Notes: generated from the letters alone by a model not told the origin. A stretch of DNA of 64,000 nucleotides from Amphiscolops sp. MND2022 (GCA_964187785.1 OZ076409.1:57848001-57912000); one strand, 5' to 3'. Positions 23,964 through 43,500 are shown, counted from the first letter of the stretch. A program made the numbers and translations.

Positions 23964-24834
23964 CCCAGTGTAAAAACTCTTGGAACTCTTGATAAGAATC
24001 TTGGATATTCTTGGATTTCTTGGTAAGAATCTTGCCAAGACTCTTACCAAGAAATCCAAGAATTTGCAAGATCTTGCAAGATCGTGCCAAGAAATTCAAG
24101 AAACCCCAAGATTCTTATCAAGAGTTTCAAGAGAAACCAAGAATACGCAAGAAAATGCAAGAGGATTCAAGATTCCCTTTAGAACCTCAGTCATCATAAA
24201 ACCTTCAGAAGTCTCGGCAAATGAGCTAAAAATTATCAAAAATATCCAGCATTATGGAATTAGGATCTTAAAATTACAAATTTGGACCCAAATCTGATCA
24301 CGAAAGATCGATAAATGTAGCTGAAGTTGGAAAATCATTGAATGTTGCTCTCATAATTGCAAATTCAGATCTAAAATGAGCAAAATTATTACCTAAAAGG
24401 ATTGAAAACAAGATCCAAATGGTATGTATCAAGGATCTAAAAATTACATGTTCCAGACCAAAAATTGATCATATAAGGTTGAAATTTTGCAGATTTGGTA
24501 ATTGCAGACAATTTGTCTCTGAAATTGGCCTTAAATTTACCCAGAAAAGGGTTTTACAGAGAAAATTTTACAGATTTTTCCATAACATGGCCCAGAATAA
24601 CTGTAAACAGGTCTAATTCAACAATTTGTGAAATTGTACTGAATTTTGAAATAATCGAAATTTTCATCTCCCGGATTTCTTGATAAGAATCTTGGCAAGA
24701 TTCTAGTCAAGAAATTCAAGATTTTCTGGAAGAAGTAAGACTTTCCAAGATCTTATCAAGAAATTCAAGAGGTAGCAGGATTTTGTAGGAAAATCCAAAA
24801 TCTTGGTAAGAAATCCAAGAGTTTTTACACTGGG
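23964..24834. mobile_element. Non-autonomous DNA transposon (MITE), CCC..GGG termini, probable CMC/EnSpm type
   Basis: Perfect 21-bp TIR CCCAGTGTAAAAACTCTTGGA, TT 2-bp TSD (23962-63, 24835-36), dense subterminal TCTTG/CAAGA repeats at both ends. Confidence 0.88.
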
Positions 24835-25425: not shown

Positions 25426-25662
<237 letters not shown>

Positions 25663-31208: not shown

Positions 31209-31482
31209 CAATTTGGTGAGTTTGTTTTTTCACAAATTTTTCTGCTTCTCTAACTATGCTCGTCTGATTTTTATTTCTCGTTCTCAATTTTTGCTTTTTG
31301 CGTCTCGGATATCCACAATTTTTGCATTTTTATGCCGTCCGTTACCGCCGTTTTGCTTCTGTTAACTTTGTAGCTTATATCTTCGTGGGAATTCCTGTTT
31401 TGCTGCCCCAGTTTTGTTTCAGTTACTTCCTTCTGCCTGTTTCGGGCTTTTGCTTGGAGTTTGTGAGGGATGGATCGACCTT

Positions 31483-31886
31483 TGTTGCGGCAGCAATGTC
31501 GTTAATTAAAAGCAGTCAAACAATAAGGCCAAATAGCTCAGTTTGTTAGAGCACCGGTCTCGGGACGAAAAGATCGCAGGTTCGATTCCCGGTAACTGCA
31601 AATATTTGGGAAAAACCCAAATATTCAAAATATCGCTAACTTTTGCAAATATATCTCAAAATAACCTTGAAAACACTGCAAAAGGGTGTTGCTATCTTGT
31701 TATTTACCATTGTTTGTAATTGTTTGTAAATGTTATTGATCATTCGTCTGCCAAAAGCAATATATTGACCGTTTAACATACTCATTTTTGCCTCGATTTG
31801 TGATCAAATCCCGTATGTTTGGCCCTCAATACATTAATGAACTCTAAATACGAAGTCTAGATTACCGAGAATTTAGCCCTTTTACA
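31483..31886 (+). repeat. BEL 5' LTR (404 bp)
   Basis: TGTTGCGG..TTTTACA; about 22 differences from the 3' LTR by manual comparison (~94-95% identity). Confidence 0.97.
31527..31600 (+). ncRNA. tRNA-like Pol III cassette inside the BEL 5' LTR
   Basis: GGCCAAA-TA-GCTC AGTTTGTTA GAGC (perfect D stem, A box), canonical spacing to B box GGTTCGATTCC; acceptor and anticodon stems do not pair, so not a translating tRNA. Confidence 0.75.
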
Positions 31887-31903
31887 TGGTGGCCATAGAG
31901 AGG
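31887..31903 (+). promoter_or_regulatory. BEL primer-binding site
   Basis: TGGTGGCCATAGAGAGG directly after the LTR CA; complementary to a tRNA ending ..GGCCA-CCA (tRNA-Ile-like ending, inferred). Confidence 0.8.
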
Positions 31904-32498
31904 CACGAATTATTGATTGGTTATACTATTTGAAACCTACAATTCTTCAGCGTATTGTTACAATCGTAAACTGATTGATCCAGTATTAATCGATAATTTC
32001 TTACAACTTTAATTTTGAGTTCGTCGTTCCCAAAATTTATAACCAGGATTAAATTTGGGATATAAAACTCAATAAAAATCAACCACCACCACCACCCCCA
32101 GCACCAGTACCGCCACATCTACAGCTTCTCATTCTGATTGTGCCGACTACCCCCCTCAGAGTAAGAAGGCCGCTGCTGCTGATAAAGAAAACAACAACAG
32201 CAGTGACGTCGCCATCTCCACAACCACTACCCCCATCGTTGAAGACTGCTTCAAAAATGAGCATGAAAAGCGTGGCAACGGCGATTGTGTCGATTTGAAT
32301 CCTAATTGTCTCTCTGAACAGCAACAGTGTCTGGGAAACAGAAAGCGAAAAAATCGCAACTCAGCTGACTATAATACCCTTCGAGTGAATGACGGTCACT
32401 CTTCCACGATCAACGAGAGTGAAGCCCGAGATTCTAATAAACACAAATATGACGTCACTGATTTGGAACCTGCTCACAAAGCACACTTGACTTCCTGA

Positions 32499-32632
32499 CC
32501 GTGACCCCTGGACGCTCACCCCTCAGCCCTGGAAGTTTTTCCCTGACCCTGGACGCTCACCCCTTAGCCCTGGAAGTTCTTCCCTGACCCCTGGAGCTTA
32601 CCAGTGAACCCCGGAAGATATTGATACCCTGG
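32499..32632 (+). repeat. ~41-bp tandem repeat in the BEL 5' leader
   Basis: TGACCC(C)TGGACGCTCACCCCT(C/T)AGCCCTGGAAGTT twice plus degenerate partial copies. Confidence 0.85.
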
Positions 32633-32811
32633 TAAAATTCTTTAAAATCTTATCGATGTTTGTATTTCAAAAGTGTGATTTGTTTTCGGGTAGCAAGATC
32701 TGGAAAATAATTTTGAGAACTTTTGAAAACCGCATGTATTTTGCTCGCAAAAAAAGGTTCATTAATCTCGATAAACGTAACAACAAGTAAAAAAATTGCA
32801 AAAGAAACTGA

Positions 32812-33414
32812 ATGGTTCAAATATTAGCTGCTAGTTCGTTGCATCATGCATTAGAAACTGTTATCCCTGAAAATCAAAACGCACTAAAAGAAAAAGTTTA
32901 TTCCATACCGGGCCTGAGCTTGAACATTAACGCAAAAGATCCTCGAAAAAATGTACAAAACCTGATTGAAAAAGATTTCAAAGACGAAAACGAACTGACA
33001 ATTTGGCACGACGTCATAAATAACAGCATTTGTAAACATAAAAGCAACTTTTACCGTGCCTTGTCAGTAATCAACCTAGTAAATGTTCTGAAATCTTATC
33101 AAAACAGAATCAGGGCTCTTGTGTACTGCCAACGGAATCGAACGCCTGACATTTTCTTGCAATTGAAAGAGACAAACATTCTTGAATTGAACATTGAAAA
33201 AGATTTTATCTCGTTGCGTAAGCAAAAAGATCTCGATTATTTGCAAAATTTGAAGGCGTTACACCAGAGACATGATCTAGAATTGAAACATCTAAATCTA
33301 GTCTTAAAGCATGAAAACAACCTCACCGAAATTACTGCCCGCAGTCGCCCCAAACGTCTCTCTAAACGCGCCCGCAAGGCGATAAAAAACCAGTCACTTG
33401 CTGCTGATAACTGA
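32812..33414 (+). CDS. Accessory 200-aa ORF of the BEL element, putative SGNH/GDSL-fold protein with basic C-terminal tail
   Basis: Intact ATG-to-stop ORF upstream of gag; motifs ILAASSL, SIPGLS, IWHDVINNSI and ALHQ are placed like SGNH blocks I/II/III/V; tail RSRPKRLSKRARKAIK. Fold is inferred. Confidence 0.6.
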   Translation: MVQILAASSLHHALETVIPENQNALKEKVYSIPGLSLNINAKDPRKNVQNLIEKDFKDENELTIWHDVINNSICKHKSNFYRALSVINLVNVLKSYQNRIRALVYCQRNRTPDIFLQLKETNILELNIEKDFISLRKQKDLDYLQNLKALHQRHDLELKHLNLVLKHENNLTEITARSRPKRLSKRARKAIKNQSLAADN

Positions 33415-33620
33415 CTTCCCTCTTCTTTTCTGTGTTGTGGCCGCGTCCGGACTTCATTGTCTGGTTGACGCTGCAACCAGTAAAAGTTTCTTTTCTGTGT
33501 TGTGTCCGAGCTTCACTGCTCGGTTGATTCACAGAAAGAACCCTCCTCCCGTAAAAAAGCAGCAGTCCTTTTTACCATCTGTACGTCGTGTAGATCATCG
33601 TAATCGTCCTCAGAATAATT

Positions 33621-36600
33621 ATGACTGATTTACAAGAGAAAGTTCAGAAGTTGCACGAAAGTCGATTGAAGGCGCAAACCGAACTAAACAGCTTGCAACA
33701 GAAGATCTCTGATTCCATTGCCAACGCAGACAGACGAGTAAAAGTTGAACGTCTCGTGAAAGAAGCCGAAGATGCAATGACGAGAGCATTTAGCAAAAAC
33801 GAACAAATTTTTGCGCTTGCATCAAAAACTACTAATGCTGAGGCACTCAAAGCGGACTTAGAACAGTGGTTGAAAGAGGTCACTGAGCAGAACGACAAAA
33901 TTTTGAGAAAAGCCTGTGAATATATTGATGCTTGCCCAGCAGCTGATGAAAAGTCACATTCTTCGGTCGGCACTGTTAACGAAAAGGCTTGGAAAAGATC
34001 TTCGATATCAACGAAAACGAAAACATTAAGTCAGAAACAGAAAGAACTTGTTTTAGCAATGCAACGTCGGGAAGAACTGGCACGACAGAGTGAAAACGCG
34101 CTACGTTTAGCCAAGCAGAGACATGAGTTCGCATGGAAACGCTTAGAAGAGGAACAGGGCCTCCAACTGGAAGAAATGGCAGAAGAAAGCCGACGAAAAC
34201 TTGCGGAAGCAAGAATTACCGAACTGGAGTTGACTGAAAACCTTTCTGAAGCGCCTGATGAATTCCACGAAACACTGTCTCGCATTAGCAATTACAGTAG
34301 ACAAACCGCAACCCAGAGAGTGTCCGACTGGGTCAATGATGTTGATTCGGAACCGCCACAGGCCGTAACTACTGAGGCCAACGCAGTAGCCGAATCTTCA
34401 AATCCGCCAGTTGCTTCAACAACACCAACAACAGAAGTTGTTCAAAGCGGCTATCCTAACCAACTCGCAGCGCTTGCATCTGGACTGAACACTTTTCCGC
34501 CTGAACAGCAGCTCAACGTTGCCGCTGTCAACTTTTCCATGCCAGTTATAACAAACAGCTCTCCTCCGTCACTGGCTGCGGTCAGTCACCTACCTTTTCG
34601 ACACGTGCCGTCTGCAGCCGCTCCTACAACAACCGTGCCCCCCATATCTCAGACCCCAAATTTGCCTTCGCAAACACAACAGCCTGTTATTCCGATTACA
34701 ACACAGCCTCTGCTCACCATGCCATCCAGCCATGCTGTTCCTAACTTGTCTGCTTGGACGTTCCCGGTTGGAAACAGCCTTCCAATAACACAATATACTG
34801 CCCCGCCTTCTACTGGAGGTCAATTTACTTCTTCAGGTACAGCCGCAGCGCCAATCGTGACTGAAACAACTGGTACCAAATTACCAGAGCGGAGGAACAA
34901 CTTATTACTGCAACCCTCAAGGCGTTACGGTTCCTACAGCGACCGTACCAATAACACAACCTACAACGACACTGATACCGGCTTCTATTTTCCCGAACTT
35001 TCAACATCCGATCGTTCCACCACCGACGCCAACGACCGTAACGGTGAACGATCTTGCTCAACTTTTGTCAGCAGCGCAAAAGGACCATCTTCCTGAGTGG
35101 AAACTGGCGCAATATAATGGAGATCCACTGCAATGGCATGAGTGGATAGGCCAGTTTAGGAGTGCCATTGACTCCGCACCACTTTCGAATGATGTGAAGC
35201 AGATGTATCTGAAAACACTCGTAACAGGCAAAGCGAAGACTGCAATTGCGGAGTTTGCATACTGTGGGACAAGGTACCAAGATGCACTGAAGACGCTTGA
35301 GCGTAAATTTGGTCAACCACAGGCAGTTGTGTCTACTCACCTTGAAAAACTGAATAGCTTTCCGCCATTGAAAATGCACAATAGCGACAATGTGATAGCA
35401 TTTTCTGCAACAATTCCGCTATGGTTGGTGTGTTCCGCTCGCTGAAATACGAACACGATTTGTCAAGTACAGCCTTACTGGGTCAAGCTGTGCAGAAACT
35501 TCCTCCTAACATGAAAGAAACTTGGTCTCTGCATACTGTGAAGAAAGATTGGACCCGAACAACCCCTTTGGATTTCAACGACCGGAAGGCCAACGAAAGT
35601 GCTTCCACTGTTACGCGCACCAAGACTGGAGCAAAAGTATTCGCCGCGGCTAGTTCTAGCGCACCTTCAACTGGAACTGCAACCAAGACAAACAGAGTAC
35701 AATTAGCTTGCATTGCTTGCAAAGAAATTCATCCTTTATGGCGATGTCGCGTGTTTCTCAGTAAAACACCCACCGAAAGAGCAAAAATAGTTGCCGAAAA
35801 CAAACTTTGCTTCTCGTGTTTTAAAGAAAATCACTCTTTCCGTCAATGTCCGCAACCACGCAAGTGCAATAAAGATGATTGCTCCAGTTCTCATAATACT
35901 CTGTTACACGGTGCTGAACGAGTCTTGCAACCAAGAACCACTCCAAAAACGTCACGTAACCAAGTAACTAGTTCTTGTAGCTCCACAACACGAAACAGCC
36001 AAACGGGTGAAAGTTCCGGCGTGTGCTCGATAACCGACATGAAAGGACTTCTTCAAATCACCGAAGTTGAGGTACATACTGGAACCAATCCCACAAAGGT
36101 GTTAGCTTTGTGTGACTCTGCTTGCAGTCACTCGTGGATTTCCGAAAATCTTGCAACAAAGCTTAACCTGAAAGGTTTACCAACCAAGTTAACAGTCCAT
36201 GGGATAAACTCACAACAGGTTGTTGACACTGAGATAGTTGAGCTCGAGTTGACGCCCGTTCATTCAGGTGGCTCTTGCTCTACTTTCGATGTCAAGCCTT
36301 ATGTGAGGAAGACTTTGCACGTTGGAAATGATGTCATTGATGTGGACTATCTGAAAACACTCTACCCTCACTTGGAGCCCATTGCTCTGAAGACGTACAG
36401 TTACGGAGATGTCGAAATGATACTGGGTCAAGACGTGTTCCATTCAATCCGCTCGTTGGAGTATTTTGAATCCGACCGAAAAAATTCTCCAATTGCCGTT
36501 TGAATACCGTTGGGTTGGGTTGGTTTTTGAGTGGACCATTGCCTTCGACTTCAGGACTCGTTTCGACGTGCTTCAAAGTTGTGACTCAAAGTGAGTGTGA

Positions 36601-39600
36601 CTCCCAGTTAGCCGATCAACTTCGGAGCTGGTACGAAATGGAATCCTTTGCAGCGAAGAAACAAGTCGACCCGCTCTCAGCTGCCGGTGCTAGAGCGTCG
36701 AAACTTTTGCAAGACACGACATACCAAGACGGATGCCGATATCAAGTCGGTATGTTGTGGGCTGATGACGACAGTAGCCTTCCGAACAACTACTTCTCAG
36801 CCTTAGTGCAACTGAAATCCCTCGAACGCCGACTCGAACGTACTCCGGATCTGAAAGCAAGCTACGCTCAGACGATAAAAGACAACTTCGACAAGGGATA
36901 CATCGTTAAGGTCCATAAGCCCGATTGTTTCAAAGTTGACAACCCTCGTGAGTGGTACCTACCGCACCACCCGGTGGTACACCTACACAAGCCAGGTAAA
37001 GTTCGCAGTGTACTTAATGGCGCTGCCAACTTCCACGGTGTTTCACTGAACAACGCACTACTTACTGGTCCAGATTTGTTGCAAACATTGATTCATGTGC
37101 TAATGCGCTTCCGACAACATCCCTACGCTGTCTCCGCTGACATAGAAGGAATGTTGTTGCAAGTTGGCGTGATTCCTCAAGACCGACCGTCTCTTCGTTT
37201 TCTGTGGCGGGAGGACCCAGCAACAGACGTCGCTGTGTACCAGTATATACGCCACATTTTGGGTTCAAAGGATTCACCTACTTGTGCCAACTATGCGCTT
37301 CAACGAACAGCACGTGATAACTGCAAAAAATTCCCGGAAGCCGCGAAAAGTGTCGAAAACTATTTTTATATGGACGATTATCTTGAGTCGAGCGCGATCA
37401 TTGACGAAGCAACCAAGAAATCTCAAGACCTTGTGAAAATGTTATCGAAAGGCGGTTTCACGTTAACCAAGTTTGTCAGTAACGTCCCCAACTTATCTAA
37501 CCGCCTCGACCCGAAAATTGAATTTGGTACCAAAACCGATGAAAAACTTTTGCAGCCGAAGATAAAAATTCTCATGTCTTAGGCTTGAATTGGAACCACT
37601 GGTTTGACACATTAGTTGTCAGTCGCGGAACCAGTGCCGACTTGAACCGACCTATAACACAACGCGTTGTTTTAAGCCTGGTCTCGGCAGTTTACGACCC
37701 CATTGGACTTGTTGCGCCACACACTGTAACAGCCCGGCTTTTGTTAAAAGATAGTTGGCGCCTTAGCGGGCAACAATGGGACAATAACCTACCGGAAGAC
37801 ATCTGTAAAAACATCCTCGATTGGGCTGAAGAACTTCCCACTTTGAGTTGCACATATTCGGCGACAGCTCTCAAAACGCGTTCTCGGCAGTTGCCTATCT
37901 CCGTGCGAAGTGAACAACGGCAAAGGTATGACTACCGAACTAGTCTTTGTTTTCGGGAAAGCTCGCGTTGCTCCAATGAAAGCACTCACAATACCGAAGT
38001 TGGAACTTCAAGCAGCTCTTCTCGCAGCCCGATTGAAAAATGAAGTTCAAAAGGCACTCACCCTAACTGTCGAACGAACGCTTATGTGGACAGACAGCAC
38101 CACTGTACTACAATGGTTTCACTCCATTGACAAACAACCCGTGTTCGTCGCCAATAGAGTTGCCGAGATACTTGAGCTGACGACAGTTGTTGAATGGAAC
38201 CACGTACCAACAGTTGACAATCCGGCCGACGCAGGCACCCGTGGCCTGTCAGCAAAAGCTCTTTTAGAGAGCACATGGCTGAAAGGTCCCGACTTCTTGA
38301 GGACTTCTGATTGGCCCTTCAAACCATCAGATGAAATTATGAAGTCAAAATCAAAGAAACTTGACTCCGAAAAAGTCCCTACCGAAACCAAATACCAAGA
38401 GACGACAGAGACGAATACCGCAAATGTAGTCTTCAATGCCCTAACTCTGGAGTGGCAAAAGTACAGCTCTTACGAGAAACTTTTGCGCATTTTGGCTTCT
38501 ATTTTGCGCCTTTTGCCGAAATTTTCCAACAACCGAACAAAAACAGGGTCAATAACGGATCCGTCCGAACTTGAAGTTGCCGAGCAGAAACTTATCTACT
38601 TAGTACAATCGGAATCGTTTCCGAACGAGAAGAGAAGTTGCTGAAATGTCTGGCGATCAGTAAACCCTCAGCAATAAAGGACTTTTCACCCTTCATTGGT
38701 CCAAACGGTCTCCTCCGAGCACAAGGTCGTACAAAACAACTCGAAGTTGCCATATTTGACGTCAAACATCCCATCTTGCTTGACAGTCGCCACACAGCAG
38801 TTCGATTATTCCTTGAGCATCTCCACGAGAAACACTGCCATCAAGGTGTCGAGTACCCGAGAGCCTTGATACAGCAGAAGTATGCCATTGTCAAATTGAG
38901 AACTGCATTGCGATCAATACAATCCAGATGCGTAACCTGTTTGCAAACGCAAAGCGGAAACGTTGACACCGATGATAGCTGATTTGCCAAAAAAACGCCT
39001 CGCCTTTGCATCACCACCATTCACCATCATCACCATCAACACTGGATTAGATTACTTTGGTCCCTTTTACGTTTCTGTCAAACGCTCCACAGAGAAGCGG
39101 TGGGGATTCCTCTTCACATGTCTAACTACCCGCGCTGTCCATTTTGAAGTTGTGCCGTCAATGGATACAAGTAGTTGCGTCAAGGGAATTGAGAGATTTG
39201 TCTCACGTCGGGGCATTCCCGCCGTCATCTGGTCGGACAACGGGACAATTTTTGTGGCGACTGAGAAAGAACTTCTTCAGAACGTTCTTAACTGGAATCA
39301 GCAAGCCATTACTGAGTCTATGGTCAAGAAAGGTATCAACTGGAAATTCAATCCTCCTAGCGCGGTGTCTGGGAAGGGCTAGTGAAACATTTAAACACAC
39401 ATTCTATGCGATACTTGGCAACAGACGTTTGACAGACGAAATCCTAACAACTGTTTTCTGTCTCGTAGAGCAGAGCCTCAACGCTCGCCCGTTAGTTCCA
39501 GCAAGCGCAGATGCCACTGATATGGATGCTTTGACACCCAACTACTTCCTGCTTGGAACCGCTGTCTCGTCTCTACCATGTCATTCCAACTGTGATCTCG

Positions 39601-39926
39601 ACCACCGCAAGCGATATGCACGCGCGCAAGCATACTCTGACGCCATCTGGAGCAGGTGGCTGAAAGAGTATGTACCGACTTTGAATCGTCGCGCCAAGTG
39701 GTCAACACAGTCTGACAGACAACTGAAGACCGGACATCTCGTTTGGATGGTAGAAGCCACAAGTCCTAGAGGCTACTACCCTCTCGCACGCGTAGTCAAA
39801 CTCCACTTTGGCAACGATGCCGTCGCCCGTTCTGCTGAAGTTAAAACCACGTCCAGAAACCTCGTCCGTCCGGTCGTGAAACTAGCTCCAGTTCTCCATC
39901 CCACCGATCTTGCCGATTCCCATTAA
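33621..39926 (+). pseudogene. BEL/Pao gag-pol polyprotein, frameshifted
   Basis: Coiled-coil N-terminus, BEL gag core (YNGDPLQWHEW..LERKFG), three Cys/His knuckles (CIACKEIHPLWRC, CFSCFKENHSFRQC, CNKDDCSSSHNTLLH), protease LCDSACSHSW, RT WYLPHH / ADIEGM / YMDD, RNase H ARVAP..IPKLELQAA / WTDS / NPADAGTRG, integrase GLDYFGP / SDNGT, C-terminal RPVVKL; many frame breaks. Confidence 0.96.
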
Positions 39927-40105
39927 TTTCCCTTCTTGTTATGCATTAATCACATGCACCTTTCCTGTTTAACCACATGTATCTTTGTTACACATGTATC
40001 ATATAGTGTCGTTGTACCAAACCGACCAAAAAAATTCAAAAAAATGAAAAAAACTGTTTTTTTCCTTTATAAAGAAACATTCCTCATCTTCTTGGGCCCG
40101 GAGGA

Positions 40106-40510
40106 TGTTGCGGCAGCAATGTCGTTAATTAAAAGTAATCAAACAATGAGGCCAAATAGCTCAGTTTGTTAGAGCACCGGTCTCAGAACCAAAAGATCGC
40201 AGGTTCGATTCCCGGTAACTGCAAATTTTTGGGAAAAACCCAAATATTCAAAATATCGCTAGTTTTTGCAAATATATCTCAAAAAAAACCTTGAAAACAC
40301 TTCAAAAAGGTCTTGCTATCTTGTTATTTACCATTGTTTGTAATTGTTTGTAAATGTTATTGATCATTTGTCTGCCAAAAGCAATAATTTGACCGTTTAA
40401 CATTTTCATTTTTGCCTCGATTTGTGATCAAATCCCGTATGTTTGGCCCTCAATACATTGTTGAACTCCAAATACGAAGTCTAGATTACCGAGAATTTAG
40501 CCCTTTTACA
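40106..40510 (+). repeat. BEL 3' LTR (405 bp)
   Basis: Direct repeat of 31483-31886, preceded by a purine-rich tract and followed by the TSD. Confidence 0.97.
40150..40230 (+). ncRNA. tRNA-like Pol III cassette in the BEL 3' LTR with T5 terminator
   Basis: Same A box/D stem and B box as the 5' copy; TTTTT at 40226-40230 immediately after the tRNA-length body. Confidence 0.75.
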
Positions 40511-40515
40511 ACCTT

Positions 40516-43500
40516 TGCAGTATCTCTAGTTCTCTGACAAGGAAGAAGACTTCGCTGTGTGGCAGGAGCGATTCGAGGTGTTCTGTTTCACGAAGAAGCT
40601 GCTGAAAATCCTGATTGGAACAGATGCTGGTTCGAATGACAAGAAGTACGAAATTTGGGCGTACTTGGTACAGTGTCTCGACAGCCGCAGTAACATGATG
40701 CTAACGAACGACTGCAAGGGTGATGGTCCGAAGGCATGGCAACTACTGCAGGACCACTTCAAAAGCACCGAAACACCGAAGTTGATGAACCTATTGGAGA
40801 AGTTCACAACCCTGCGATTGGAGCCCACGGAGAGCATGGTTGACTACCTGACTCGATCGTAGTATGTGAGTATGCGAGTATGTGAGTATGAACTTGCTGG
40901 TGAGAAAGTTTCTGGAAACATGTTAACTTCAATAGTTCTCAAGGGTTTGCCTCCCGAAGATGACTACTTTAAAACTGTGCACAATTTTTCGAAAGATAAG
41001 GCGTCTTTCGCGGAAGTGAAGAAGGCATTTAAAAAATTCGAATGTTCTCGTAACCTACAAACTGCGACAGCTGCCAATGAAATTGTTGCTTTGTTATCCA
41101 AAGGAACTGTTGCGAAAAGTTCCGCGCGAAAACCTGAAAAGTTCACTGGGAAGTGTATGCGTTGCGGTAAAAGTGGACATAAACAAGGCAGCCACTTGCA
41201 GAGTATCTCAGTGCAACTTTTGCAGGCGTTTTTGCCATGAAGAGAATATGTATTTCAAGAAAAACCCTCTTTTAAACCCTAGGTCAAGTGCTGAGACAGG
41301 AGAGTCAAACCTAGCTGAGGACTTAGTTTTCTTTTGCGATGGTAGTGAGACTGCACTCACTAGCCAAAAATGCGAGGTGAAGAAGCACACTTTGGTCATT
41401 GATTCTGGTGCTTGCTCGCATATGTTTTTGACCGTTCTCAGTTCTTCGACTTTAGCGAAGAAACACAACGCAAAGTAAAAAATGCGAATGGGACTTTTTC
41501 GCAAGTTAAGGGTATTGGAAAATTTTACTTTTGGACAAGGATGGGATCGAACAATGTGTGACACTTTCGGACTGTCTTTTTCTTCCCGATCATTCTCATA
41601 AGTTGTTCAGCGTTAGCAAGTTGAGACAAAACAGGGCTCACGTGGACTTCGGACAATCTCTGAGCGTTTTTGTCAATGGAAGAGCAACTATTTCTTTTGA
41701 AGAGCACGCTAATCTTTACGTTTTGGAAAGGAAAGACATTTGATCTTTGTTCTTTTCCCGGCGAGAACGAAGAAGCGGTGCTGTGGCATCATCGCCTTGG
41801 TCACAACAATTTCAAAAATCTGAAATGTTTGGCTCATCGTGTTTCAGGAATGAGCTTGAAATACACTGCTTTTGATGACCTTTGTTGTTGTGAATTTGGC
41901 AAAATTTCGAAGTCACCATGGCAACCAGTATCGCGAAAAATGGAGAAAAGAAAATTTTCGAAACTTGATCTCGTTTCCACTGACATTTTGGGACCGATGC
42001 CAACTACTTGGTGGCAACCAATACGCTATTTCTTTTACAGATAGCTACAGCAGGTACTCAGCGGAATGGTTCCTCTAATCGAAGTAGGAGAGAGATCAAT
42101 TCAAAGTTCTTTGTGAGCAAGGGGGAACGCCCAGAGCAATCCGTTCTGATAATGGAAAAGAGTACATTTCCAAGTCTTTCCGAAGTTTTTGTATATCAAA
42201 CCGAATCAAACGTGAGCATACTGCCTCTTATTCGCCTCATCAAATGGTGTGAGTGAACGTCGCTGGCGAACAACAGTCGAAATGGCTCGCTGCATGCTAA
42301 AAACAGCCAATATCGGCAAAGAGTTTTGGGTTCGGCCTTACACACTGCTATTTACATTTCAAAACGTTGCCTCACAGTCAATTTCCCAAAAGGTAAAACG
42401 CTCTTCGAAATGTTCTTTGGTGAAAAACCAGATCTTTCCAATTTGAAAGTTTTTGGTTGTACTGCTTTCAAACTCAATGAAACGCATCAAGACAAAGTTT
42501 CCGATAAAGCCACCGAAGAACTTTTTGTTGGTTATTCTGAGGATTCCGAAGCATATATTTTGTACAATTCTTACTCTAAAATGACTTCGTTTTCTCGCAA
42601 CGTCTCCTTTGATGAGACTTCTTTTAACTCTTTTGAAGCGCCGCACCCAAGTCAGAACATCCAAGCATTTGTAACCGAAAAGCCGGCATCGAAGCAAGGT
42701 TTGCCTGAAACACAGAAACATTTTTGCGAAAAATCTCAGTTCCTATTCCACCGACTGAAACATTGAACGACTTCGAAACTGAAACAACTCCTTCCCCGTT
42801 GATGTTGTTTCATCTGAAAACATTGATGCTATTGAAAGTAGTGTTTTTTCGCGGTCTAGAAGTGGGAGAGTTATCAAACGTCCTGCGTATCTCGACGACC
42901 ACGTTCTTTTAACGGATGACAGCGATGAGAATCTAACTTAACGTGAAGCAATGAAGTCATCACCTAAAAGCGAATGGATCGAAGCTACTCTAAAGGAGTA
43001 CAATGCGCTCATTGAGAACAAGAGATGCGTGTTTTCTCCGCTTCCCCGGGCCAAAAAGCAATTGGAACCCGGTGGGTTTTCAAAATTAAGCGACACGACG
43101 ACGGAACTATTAGGAAATTCGAGGCTCGTTTCGTAGCCAAGGGTTTTCGCAAGTTTTTGGAACCGATAACGATAAAACTTTTGCGCCTACTGCCAAACTT
43201 TGTACATTGAGGTTTTCTTTTGCGCTCGCTGCTTCTTGGTCGACTTCTGTTTTTCAGTTAGACGTCCGTTCATCCTTTCTCAATGCGAACTTAAGTGATG
43301 AAGTTTACATAGCCAGCAGGCTTTGCGCAAGCAGGGGCTAATGGTGAAACACTTTATTGCAAGCTTCAAAAATGTCTTTATGGTTTAAAGCAAGCAGGGA
43401 GGGAATGGAACAAAACCTTAACCCAGTGGTTTTTGAAGAACGAATTTATACAGTCTGCCGAAGGATCATTGTCTTCTTCGTTGCGATGGGAACAATGTTG

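Follow-up and report, generated by a model that had tools for sequence, protein, structure and literature searches.

A tRNA-shaped cassette with A and B boxes in the long terminal repeats of a coding BEL/Pao retrotransposon clade of Amphiscolops sp.

Why should a retrotransposon of a gag-pol-coding clade carry, in each of its long terminal repeats (LTRs), a segment shaped like a tRNA gene? The question is raised by a BEL/Pao element in a window of 64,000 nt from Amphiscolops sp. MND2022 (GCA_964187785.1 OZ076409.1:57848001-57912000), the whole stretch of DNA analysed, taken as one strand; counts on this copy use window positions (Table 1). A preliminary description had read the element as a gag-pol-encoding BEL retrotransposon with a built-in RNA polymerase III (Pol III) cassette that could yield an ~80-nt RNA, drive transcription or act as a TFIIIC barrier against silencing. 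Comparisons with related copies partly supported this interpretation. The cassette is real, is found throughout the clade, predates the radiation of the clade in this genome, and is explained neither by chance nor by a short interspersed element (SINE).

The 74-nt cassette begins 44 bp into each LTR of the window copy, as described previously. The D stem is fully paired (4/4) and the T stem partly (3/5), and the acceptor and anticodon stems are largely unpaired (2/7 and 1/5 pairs). The AT-rich stretch upstream was also found, and the two LTRs differ within the cassette body at LTR positions 80, 82 and 85, all in the anticodon arm, in agreement with the earlier reading. The boxes agreed with it only in part: the B box is perfect, but the A box departs from the usual pattern, with T for G at position 18 in both LTRs. 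ARAGORN called no tRNA over the window, Rfam gave no tRNA match there at E<=10, and the folding of the cassette is no better than that of its shuffles (z 0.10 and -1.28). Thus the window holds no paired cloverleaf that either program recognises as a tRNA gene. The parts of a type 2 Pol III unit are present by sequence, with an A box, a B box at 30-60 bp, an interior free of T4 and T4+ behind, apart from the one A-box departure of the window copy.

Searches of the genome with the LTR gave at least 41 matches (40 of 337 candidates scored), and searches with the integrase listed at least 144, more than 120 of them with identities of 75-91%. From the 144 listed matches, 80 stretches were picked by integrase, with high identity and long frames favoured. 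One hundred stretches were fetched (101 with the window), and 94 copies in which an integrase match and the 3' LTR could both be located were kept after the exclusion of three stretches without an integrase match and four in which no purine tract was found. The A and B boxes lie at the same place of the LTR, on the sense strand, in 87 of the 94 3' LTRs, and in 70 of the 77 copies picked by integrase alone; the clade does not, therefore, mostly lack the cassette. Among the 87 cassette-bearing LTRs the A box starts at LTR position 52-65 and the A-B spacing is 43-48, placing the cassette ~45-60 bp inside each LTR. In 9000 shuffles of the heads of six LTRs, a perfect B box together with an A box of at most one mismatch never arose at this position.

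The cassette is also present outside the genome. Among the metagenome relatives, 27 of 80 had 400 nt or more behind the integrase, and two of these elements, L320 and L324, have a purine tract, a TGT start, an A box, a B box and a T-run in the 3' LTR. Their reverse transcriptase (RT) identities are 63% and 55%, respectively, and the RT tree unites them with the genome copies and the named acoel proteins in one clade (support 100/99). No cassette was scored in the LTRs of 21 BEL elements outside this clade, for most of which the presence of the LTR in the stretch was not checked by eye. Among the other BEL families of the genome (33-43% integrase identity), one of 30 has an A and B box match behind the integrase; this match is ~1 kb away and is missing from the six sister copies. 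A further candidate bearer, L346, was rejected, its match lying beyond its LTR.

The cassettes fall into ~20 types, whose comparison showed what is kept. Over 22 types, 9 of the 11 box positions are invariant, compared with 2 of 47 other positions. The mean pairwise identity among 19 types is 1.00 for the B-box invariants and 0.90 for the A-box invariants, with 0.44 for the anticodon arm and ~0.5 for the acceptor strands. Of the cassette-bearing copies, all 28 that have a frame of at least 2000 codons contain a perfect B box, compared with 13 of the 16 copies whose longest frame is below 700 codons. The stems vary from one to six of seven pairs in the acceptor and from zero to four of five in the anticodon arm, and ARAGORN at a lowered threshold called a tRNA in only 4 of the 94 LTR heads. 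Since the boxes are constant and the stems are not kept, the constraint would lie on the promoter letters rather than on the fold of an RNA; the pattern is that of a putative DNA promoter, not of a structured RNA. Selection on the boxes is what we infer from this constancy, and they probably represent a selected Pol III-type site, whatever its use. Two cassettes, those of L265 (G000:C3:92935757) and L266 (G000:C7:53501721), score above the Rfam tRNA cut-off (41.1 and 37.9 bits), and one of them is called tRNA-Pro by ARAGORN; both are false tRNA genes.

The T-runs set the limits of any transcript. T4 occurs inside the cassette in none of 19 types, and all 19 have T4+ within 60 nt behind it, compared with 9.7 expected from shuffles; T5+ follows in 15 of 19 types (3.9 expected). 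The first T-run lies at about position 105-117 from the cassette start in most types and at 75-78 in two. A TTTTT directly behind the 3' cassette, noted in the preliminary description, is indeed there, but it is private to the window copy: T4+ directly behind the cassette occurs in 1 of 14 copies of the nearest types (A2, B and C1) and in 23 of 87 copies overall, 19 of these in two other types. The shared T-run lies ~40 nt beyond the private one, so the proposed ~80-nt RNA ending at 40230 does not hold as a family trait, the shared run giving ~105-117 nt in most types. Thus the expectation of conserved boxes and T-run was borne out for the boxes but not for a T-run directly behind the cassette. 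A check for a stem-loop of the foamy-virus type found a short hairpin before the T-run in some types only; the hairpin has a z of -2 to -3.5 in several types and is missing in at least five. The cassette could, as judged from these features, give a short RNA.

The cassette types are scattered over the RT tree, with copies that differ by ~1% in RT carrying different cassettes (41 changes over 98 rows, counted without a shuffled control). Because of this shuffling, RT divergence is no yardstick for the cassette and was rejected as one. In 53 copies the 5' (A-box) half of the cassette is correlated with the other LTR parts and the 3' untranslated region at a rho of only 0.02-0.19, compared with 0.24-0.87 among those parts themselves, and only the adjoining anticodon part is linked to it. 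The same test showed no clear break and did not locate R. Two types contain exact blocks of host tRNAs: that of L266 (near copy L265) has 26 nt of tRNA-Lys(TTT), and that of L257 and its kin starts with nucleotides 1-20 of tRNA-Ile(AAT). One ancestor cannot explain both blocks, and at least two tRNA donors are thus indicated. The host comparison covered seven arrays (Lys, two Arg, Ile, Gln and two Ser), whose isotypes have no more than 14 nt in common, the two Ser arrays aside; most cassette types match none of the seven over more than 14 nt, and are either older or derived from isotypes outside this sample. Pattern searches for host tRNA-Gly and tRNA-Asp gave no match. The T arm reaches at best 19/25 against true host arrays, a 'Pro-cgg' row being the cassette of L266 itself. 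The simplest route to the exchanged blocks would be that the A-box half is refreshed by template switching of the reverse transcriptase onto tRNAs in the particle. The host tRNA genes themselves stand in very large tandem arrays of single isotypes (527 Ile, 717 Gln and 1021 Ser pattern matches) with many anticodon variants, at G000:C3:50.9 Mb, C3:15.5 Mb, C2:36.0 Mb, C7:5.2-5.3 Mb, C8:47.9 Mb and C9:57.6 Mb.

The cassette is likely a working tRNA-type (type 2) promoter, which would bind TFIIIC and Pol III. Passages of PMC5911963 describe box A and box B as bound by TFIIIC, which also brings the cohesin loader and condensin to tRNA genes. On the element, TFIIIC, TFIIIB and Pol III would sit at the outer edge of the LTR, and the cassette would yield only a short, non-tRNA by-product RNA. 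In cis, it likely acts as a portable barrier or booster by which the element's own RNA polymerase II (Pol II) promoter would be kept open or shielded from flanking silent chromatin. A function in cis seems likeliest because the promoter letters are constant while the sequence and fold of the RNA are not. We infer both the factor binding and the barrier or booster role from sequence features, and regard as moderately probable the whole reading, namely a selected TFIIIC/Pol III site that acts in cis for the Pol II promoter, with a short RNA as by-product. A bolder version is tentative: a BEL lineage of acoel-type animals may possess a dedicated LTR slot, the A-box halves being harvested from host tRNAs during reverse transcription and traded between sister lineages, which would make the cassette a self-carried and repeatedly re-disguised insulator that escapes sequence-specific silencing with TFIIIC binding kept.

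Several observations weigh against a selected barrier or booster. Seven of the 94 copies have no intact cassette. Three lineages (L160/L171/L182, L205/L206 and L220; L213 carries it) are without one, and they are young: the LTR pairs are 99-100% alike in five of the six copies, none being resolved for L182, and three copies have long frames (2100 or more codons). Since such young lineages exist, the cassette is dispensable, helpful rather than essential; the lineages look like losses, given the cassette-bearing relatives outside the radiation in this genome. Changes within types fell on 3 of 143 box sites and 42 of 740 other sites, in the expected direction but not significantly in this underpowered test (p=0.09). 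A rerun on copies with verified target-site duplications (TSDs), which left out the remaining copies including a tandem duplication that gives two of the three box variants, was not significant either (1/99 vs. 20/512, p=0.23). The types are not independent samples, having shared ancestry and recombination, and repeated capture from tRNAs would alone supply the boxes. The A box of the window copy is imperfect, A-runs behind the cassette are as common as T-runs, and the cassette may be part of the transcribed R region rather than stand in front of the promoter. The barrier role is drawn from the general behaviour of tRNA genes, which act as chromatin barriers.

Other explanations were also considered. 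The short Pol III RNA might itself be the product, as a small-RNA precursor, a decoy for host silencing or tRNA-fragment defence, or a packaging aid. Such a product has a precedent in simian foamy virus, described in passages of PMC3993851, and would suit the T-free cassette with a T-run behind it in 19/19 types and the hairpin of several types. However, sequence and fold both vary among types, the position of the first T-run ranges from 75 to 117 and at least five types lack the hairpin, making this explanation unlikely. A neutral capture hot spot is rather unlikely as well. In this case tRNA pieces would have recombined repeatedly into the slot, with boxes that look conserved only since all tRNAs have them, as the exact Lys and Ile blocks, the unlinked 5' half, the young cassette-less lineages, the non-significant within-type test and a leader that is extremely variable as well would allow. 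However, in most types the longest match to any of the seven host arrays sampled is no more than 14 nt and the stems are lost, yet the boxes are kept; the T arm matches the host arrays poorly while the B-box invariants never vary; and the cassette is kept across 37-45% RT divergence.

The remaining explanations concern the genomic RNA and the origin of the cassette. With TFIIIC and TBP placed by the boxes, Pol II might begin the genomic RNA at the cassette or close to it, leaving a very short U3. A constant position close to the beginning of the LTR, 3' of a TATA-like stretch, is compatible with such a hybrid promoter, as is the U/GU-rich sequence after the TTGCTA motif, which resembles the region past a poly(A) site. 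However, the cassette-less lineages retain the TATA-like head and TTGCTA and transpose, and the linkage test gave no clear R break, so the hybrid is improbable. Because they are kept in these lineages, the head and TTGCTA are the likelier Pol II elements, TTGCTA being a candidate Pol II start or poly(A) element. It is highly improbable that Pol III transcribes the full-length genomic RNA in the way suggested for Cassandra and Helenus. The cassette is of the same kind as in TRIMp3 elements (PMC10886601), but the sense strand from the cassette to the 3' LTR contains 42-61 T4+ runs and 8-17 T5+ runs in each of 17 long-frame copies (47 and 8, respectively, for the window copy), the first inside the LTR. 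Because of these runs Pol III cannot give the genomic RNA, unless the host enzyme ignores T5, and the earlier suggestion that the cassette could drive transcription is not supported for the full-length RNA. Least probable of all is a passenger SINE that entered an ancestral LTR once, even though a SINE insertion is the origin proposed for TRIMp3 (PMC10886601) and a very old SINE origin is possible. Of 60 loci (30 from a B-box pattern with 68 matches in all, and 30 of the 40 matches of a cassette-only query), all lie in whole, interrupted or 5'-cut LTRs except one 60-nt fragment, L108, which is the same place as L248. No tail and no TSD of its own were found at the loci read, and the SINE thus failed for the types queried.

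Having favoured a barrier or booster in cis, we return to the element that carries it. The clade is a coding BEL/Pao clade and has been active recently. It has the order gag, protease, RT, RNase H and integrase with BEL-type domains, LTRs with TG...CA ends, a primer-binding site (PBS), a polypurine tract and 5-bp TSDs, and a frame of 2000 or more codons is open in 31 of the 94 copies, as expected of an autonomous element. The TSD was found in 47 of 48 copies with both LTRs resolved, and among these 47 the LTR pairs are at least 99% alike in 31 and identical in 14. Among named proteins, the nearest come from two acoel worms, Convolutriloba macropyga and Symsagittifera roscoffensis (57-60% identity), so that the host, too, is probably an acoel. 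Thus the description of a coding BEL element with a built-in cassette holds for the clade but not for the window copy, whose LTR pair is 94.8% identical and whose coding region is broken by six frame changes relative to a long-frame relative. Pfam scans of ten of its frames gave DUF1759, RVT_1 (weak, below the cut-off), Peptidase_A17 and DUF5641 in order, with matches in five of the ten. The long-frame relative has the YMDD and HHCC motifs; a search for a protease motif gave no match.

Table 1. Positions of the element and its features in the window.
Feature	Position	Strand	Remarks
BEL/Pao LTR retrotransposon copy	31483..40510	+	9028 bp; coding region broken
TSD left, ACCTT	31478..31482		
TSD right, ACCTT	40511..40515		
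5' LTR	31483..31886	+	404 bp
3' LTR	40106..40510	+	405 bp
AT-rich TATA-like stretch	31502..31511; 3' copy 40125-40134	+	16-25 bp 5' of cassette; kept in cassette-less lineages too
tRNA-shaped cassette, 5' LTR	31527..31600	+	5' half nearest host tRNA-Ile(AAT), 26/31, among arrays sampled
tRNA-shaped cassette, 3' LTR	40150..40223	+	
A box	31534..31545; 3' copy 40157-40168	+	one departure, position 18
B box	31579..31589; 3' copy 40202-40212	+	perfect
10-bp hairpin 3' of cassette	31601..31625	+	z -3.5; found in some types, not others
T5 run	40226..40230	+	3' LTR only; private to window copy
Shared T-run, candidate Pol III terminator	40263..40267	+	T5; 5' LTR has T4 at 31641-31644
TTGCTA motif	31689..31694; 3' copy 40313-40318	+	kept in nearly all LTR types, cassette or none
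PBS	31887..31904	+	complementary to 3' end of host tRNA-Ile(AAT)
Leader	31905..32600	+	highly variable among copies
Extra 200-codon frame 5' of gag-pol	32812..33414	+	common to lineages with and without cassette
gag-pol region	33594..39926	+	several frames; single frame of ~2100-2160 codons in young relatives
Polypurine tract	40094..40105	+	

The PBS of the clade matches host tRNA-Ile(AAT), and in 9 of 58 PBS copies the match extends 4-5 letters past the usual 18, as if copying had passed the modified A58. The leader that follows, 400-900 bp 3' of the PBS, is wholly different among copies with near-identical pol; 44 copies have 32 distinct leader starts, and the divergence begins directly after the 18-nt PBS. 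One leader has six matches in the genome, among them two other elements with the leader behind a PBS, one 78% match without a preceding PBS and two 33-nt pieces. In the window copy the leader contains a 41-bp tandem repeat (32506-32608). The 200-codon frame, which has no Pfam match, recurs, at 54-91% identity, in 89 of 101 stretches and is open in most young copies, cassette-bearing or not. A palindromic AAATATTT motif (31600-31607 in the window, with repeats behind) lies 3' of the cassette in most types and presumably resembles a forkhead double site. Elsewhere in the window, a decayed copia-like element (40520-42766), with a retroviral SH3-like domain at 42257-42766, is the one in or beside which the BEL copy sits; a long CT microsatellite lies at 25430-25660 and a cluster of short repeats, both inverted and direct, at 23977-24820.

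Young copies with near-identical pol and ~20 different cassettes, or none, constitute a natural experiment, in which the contribution of TFIIIC/Pol III sites to nearby Pol II promoters, and to evading silencing, can be tested directly. The clade also suggests a route by which LTR elements capture tRNA sequence, and a route to Helenus-like elements through internal deletion of such a parent; its LTR cassettes are a source of false tRNA gene calls.

Pol III transcripts reportedly arise from the LTRs of Drosophila mdg1, human T-cell leukaemia virus 1 (HTLV-1) and Moloney murine leukaemia virus (MLV), all coding elements, for which a literature search gave no confirmation; to our knowledge, none of the three has a whole tRNA-shaped cassette that is clade-wide and exchanged. 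A literature search that covered few subscription papers and not Repbase found no report of a tRNA-shaped cassette in the LTRs of coding BEL elements. In the one paper on tRNA-bearing LTRs (PMC10886601) they count as a trait of tiny non-coding elements, whereas here a whole coding clade bears them, from more than one DNA source. Kojima 2024 kept only hits below 1000 bp, and its main text has tRNA-bearing LTRs in non-coding elements only, the autonomous partners being held to need ordinary Pol II promoters (PMC10886601). However, 'not a few' Repbase LTRs are said there to resemble part of a tRNA (PMC10886601), and uncharacterised coding cases may therefore sit in Repbase.

The closest known system is Helenus (TRIMp3), a group of non-coding elements of 311-1263 bp whose animal families show TSDs of 4 bp and are held to rely on Gypsy elements, and whose template RNA is ascribed to Pol III (PMC10886601). 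The BEL clade resembles Helenus in having tRNA-derived sequence with constant boxes A and B in both LTRs, mostly without a working tRNA, in many diverged families per genome that can be mis-called as tRNA genes. In contrast, the BEL element is ~9 kb and coding, where Helenus is short (~1.3 kb at most); its T-runs bar an LTR-to-LTR Pol III RNA, and its 5-bp TSD and BEL domains set it apart from the animal families with their 4-bp TSD and Gypsy partner. Cassandra and Ajax likewise have a Pol III internal promoter inside the LTR, but theirs, as far as PMC10886601 treats them, is of the 5S type in short non-coding elements, with a transcript that starts and ends in 5S copies. The TFIIIC-bound sites that Ty1, Ty3 and TRE use as a favourable chromatin setting belong, in the passages of PMC5911963, to host Pol III genes beside which these elements insert, whereas the BEL element carries a site of its own. 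Foamy viruses, in passages of Kincaid et al. 2014 (PMC3993851), are likewise coding LTR retroelements with an A box, a B box and a T terminator in the LTR, all of which the long Pol II RNA overlaps. However, their units are not tRNA-shaped and it is the microRNA hairpin product that matters, whereas the BEL cassette keeps the tRNA geometry rather than the RNA fold and appears to have exchanged its halves with host tRNAs.

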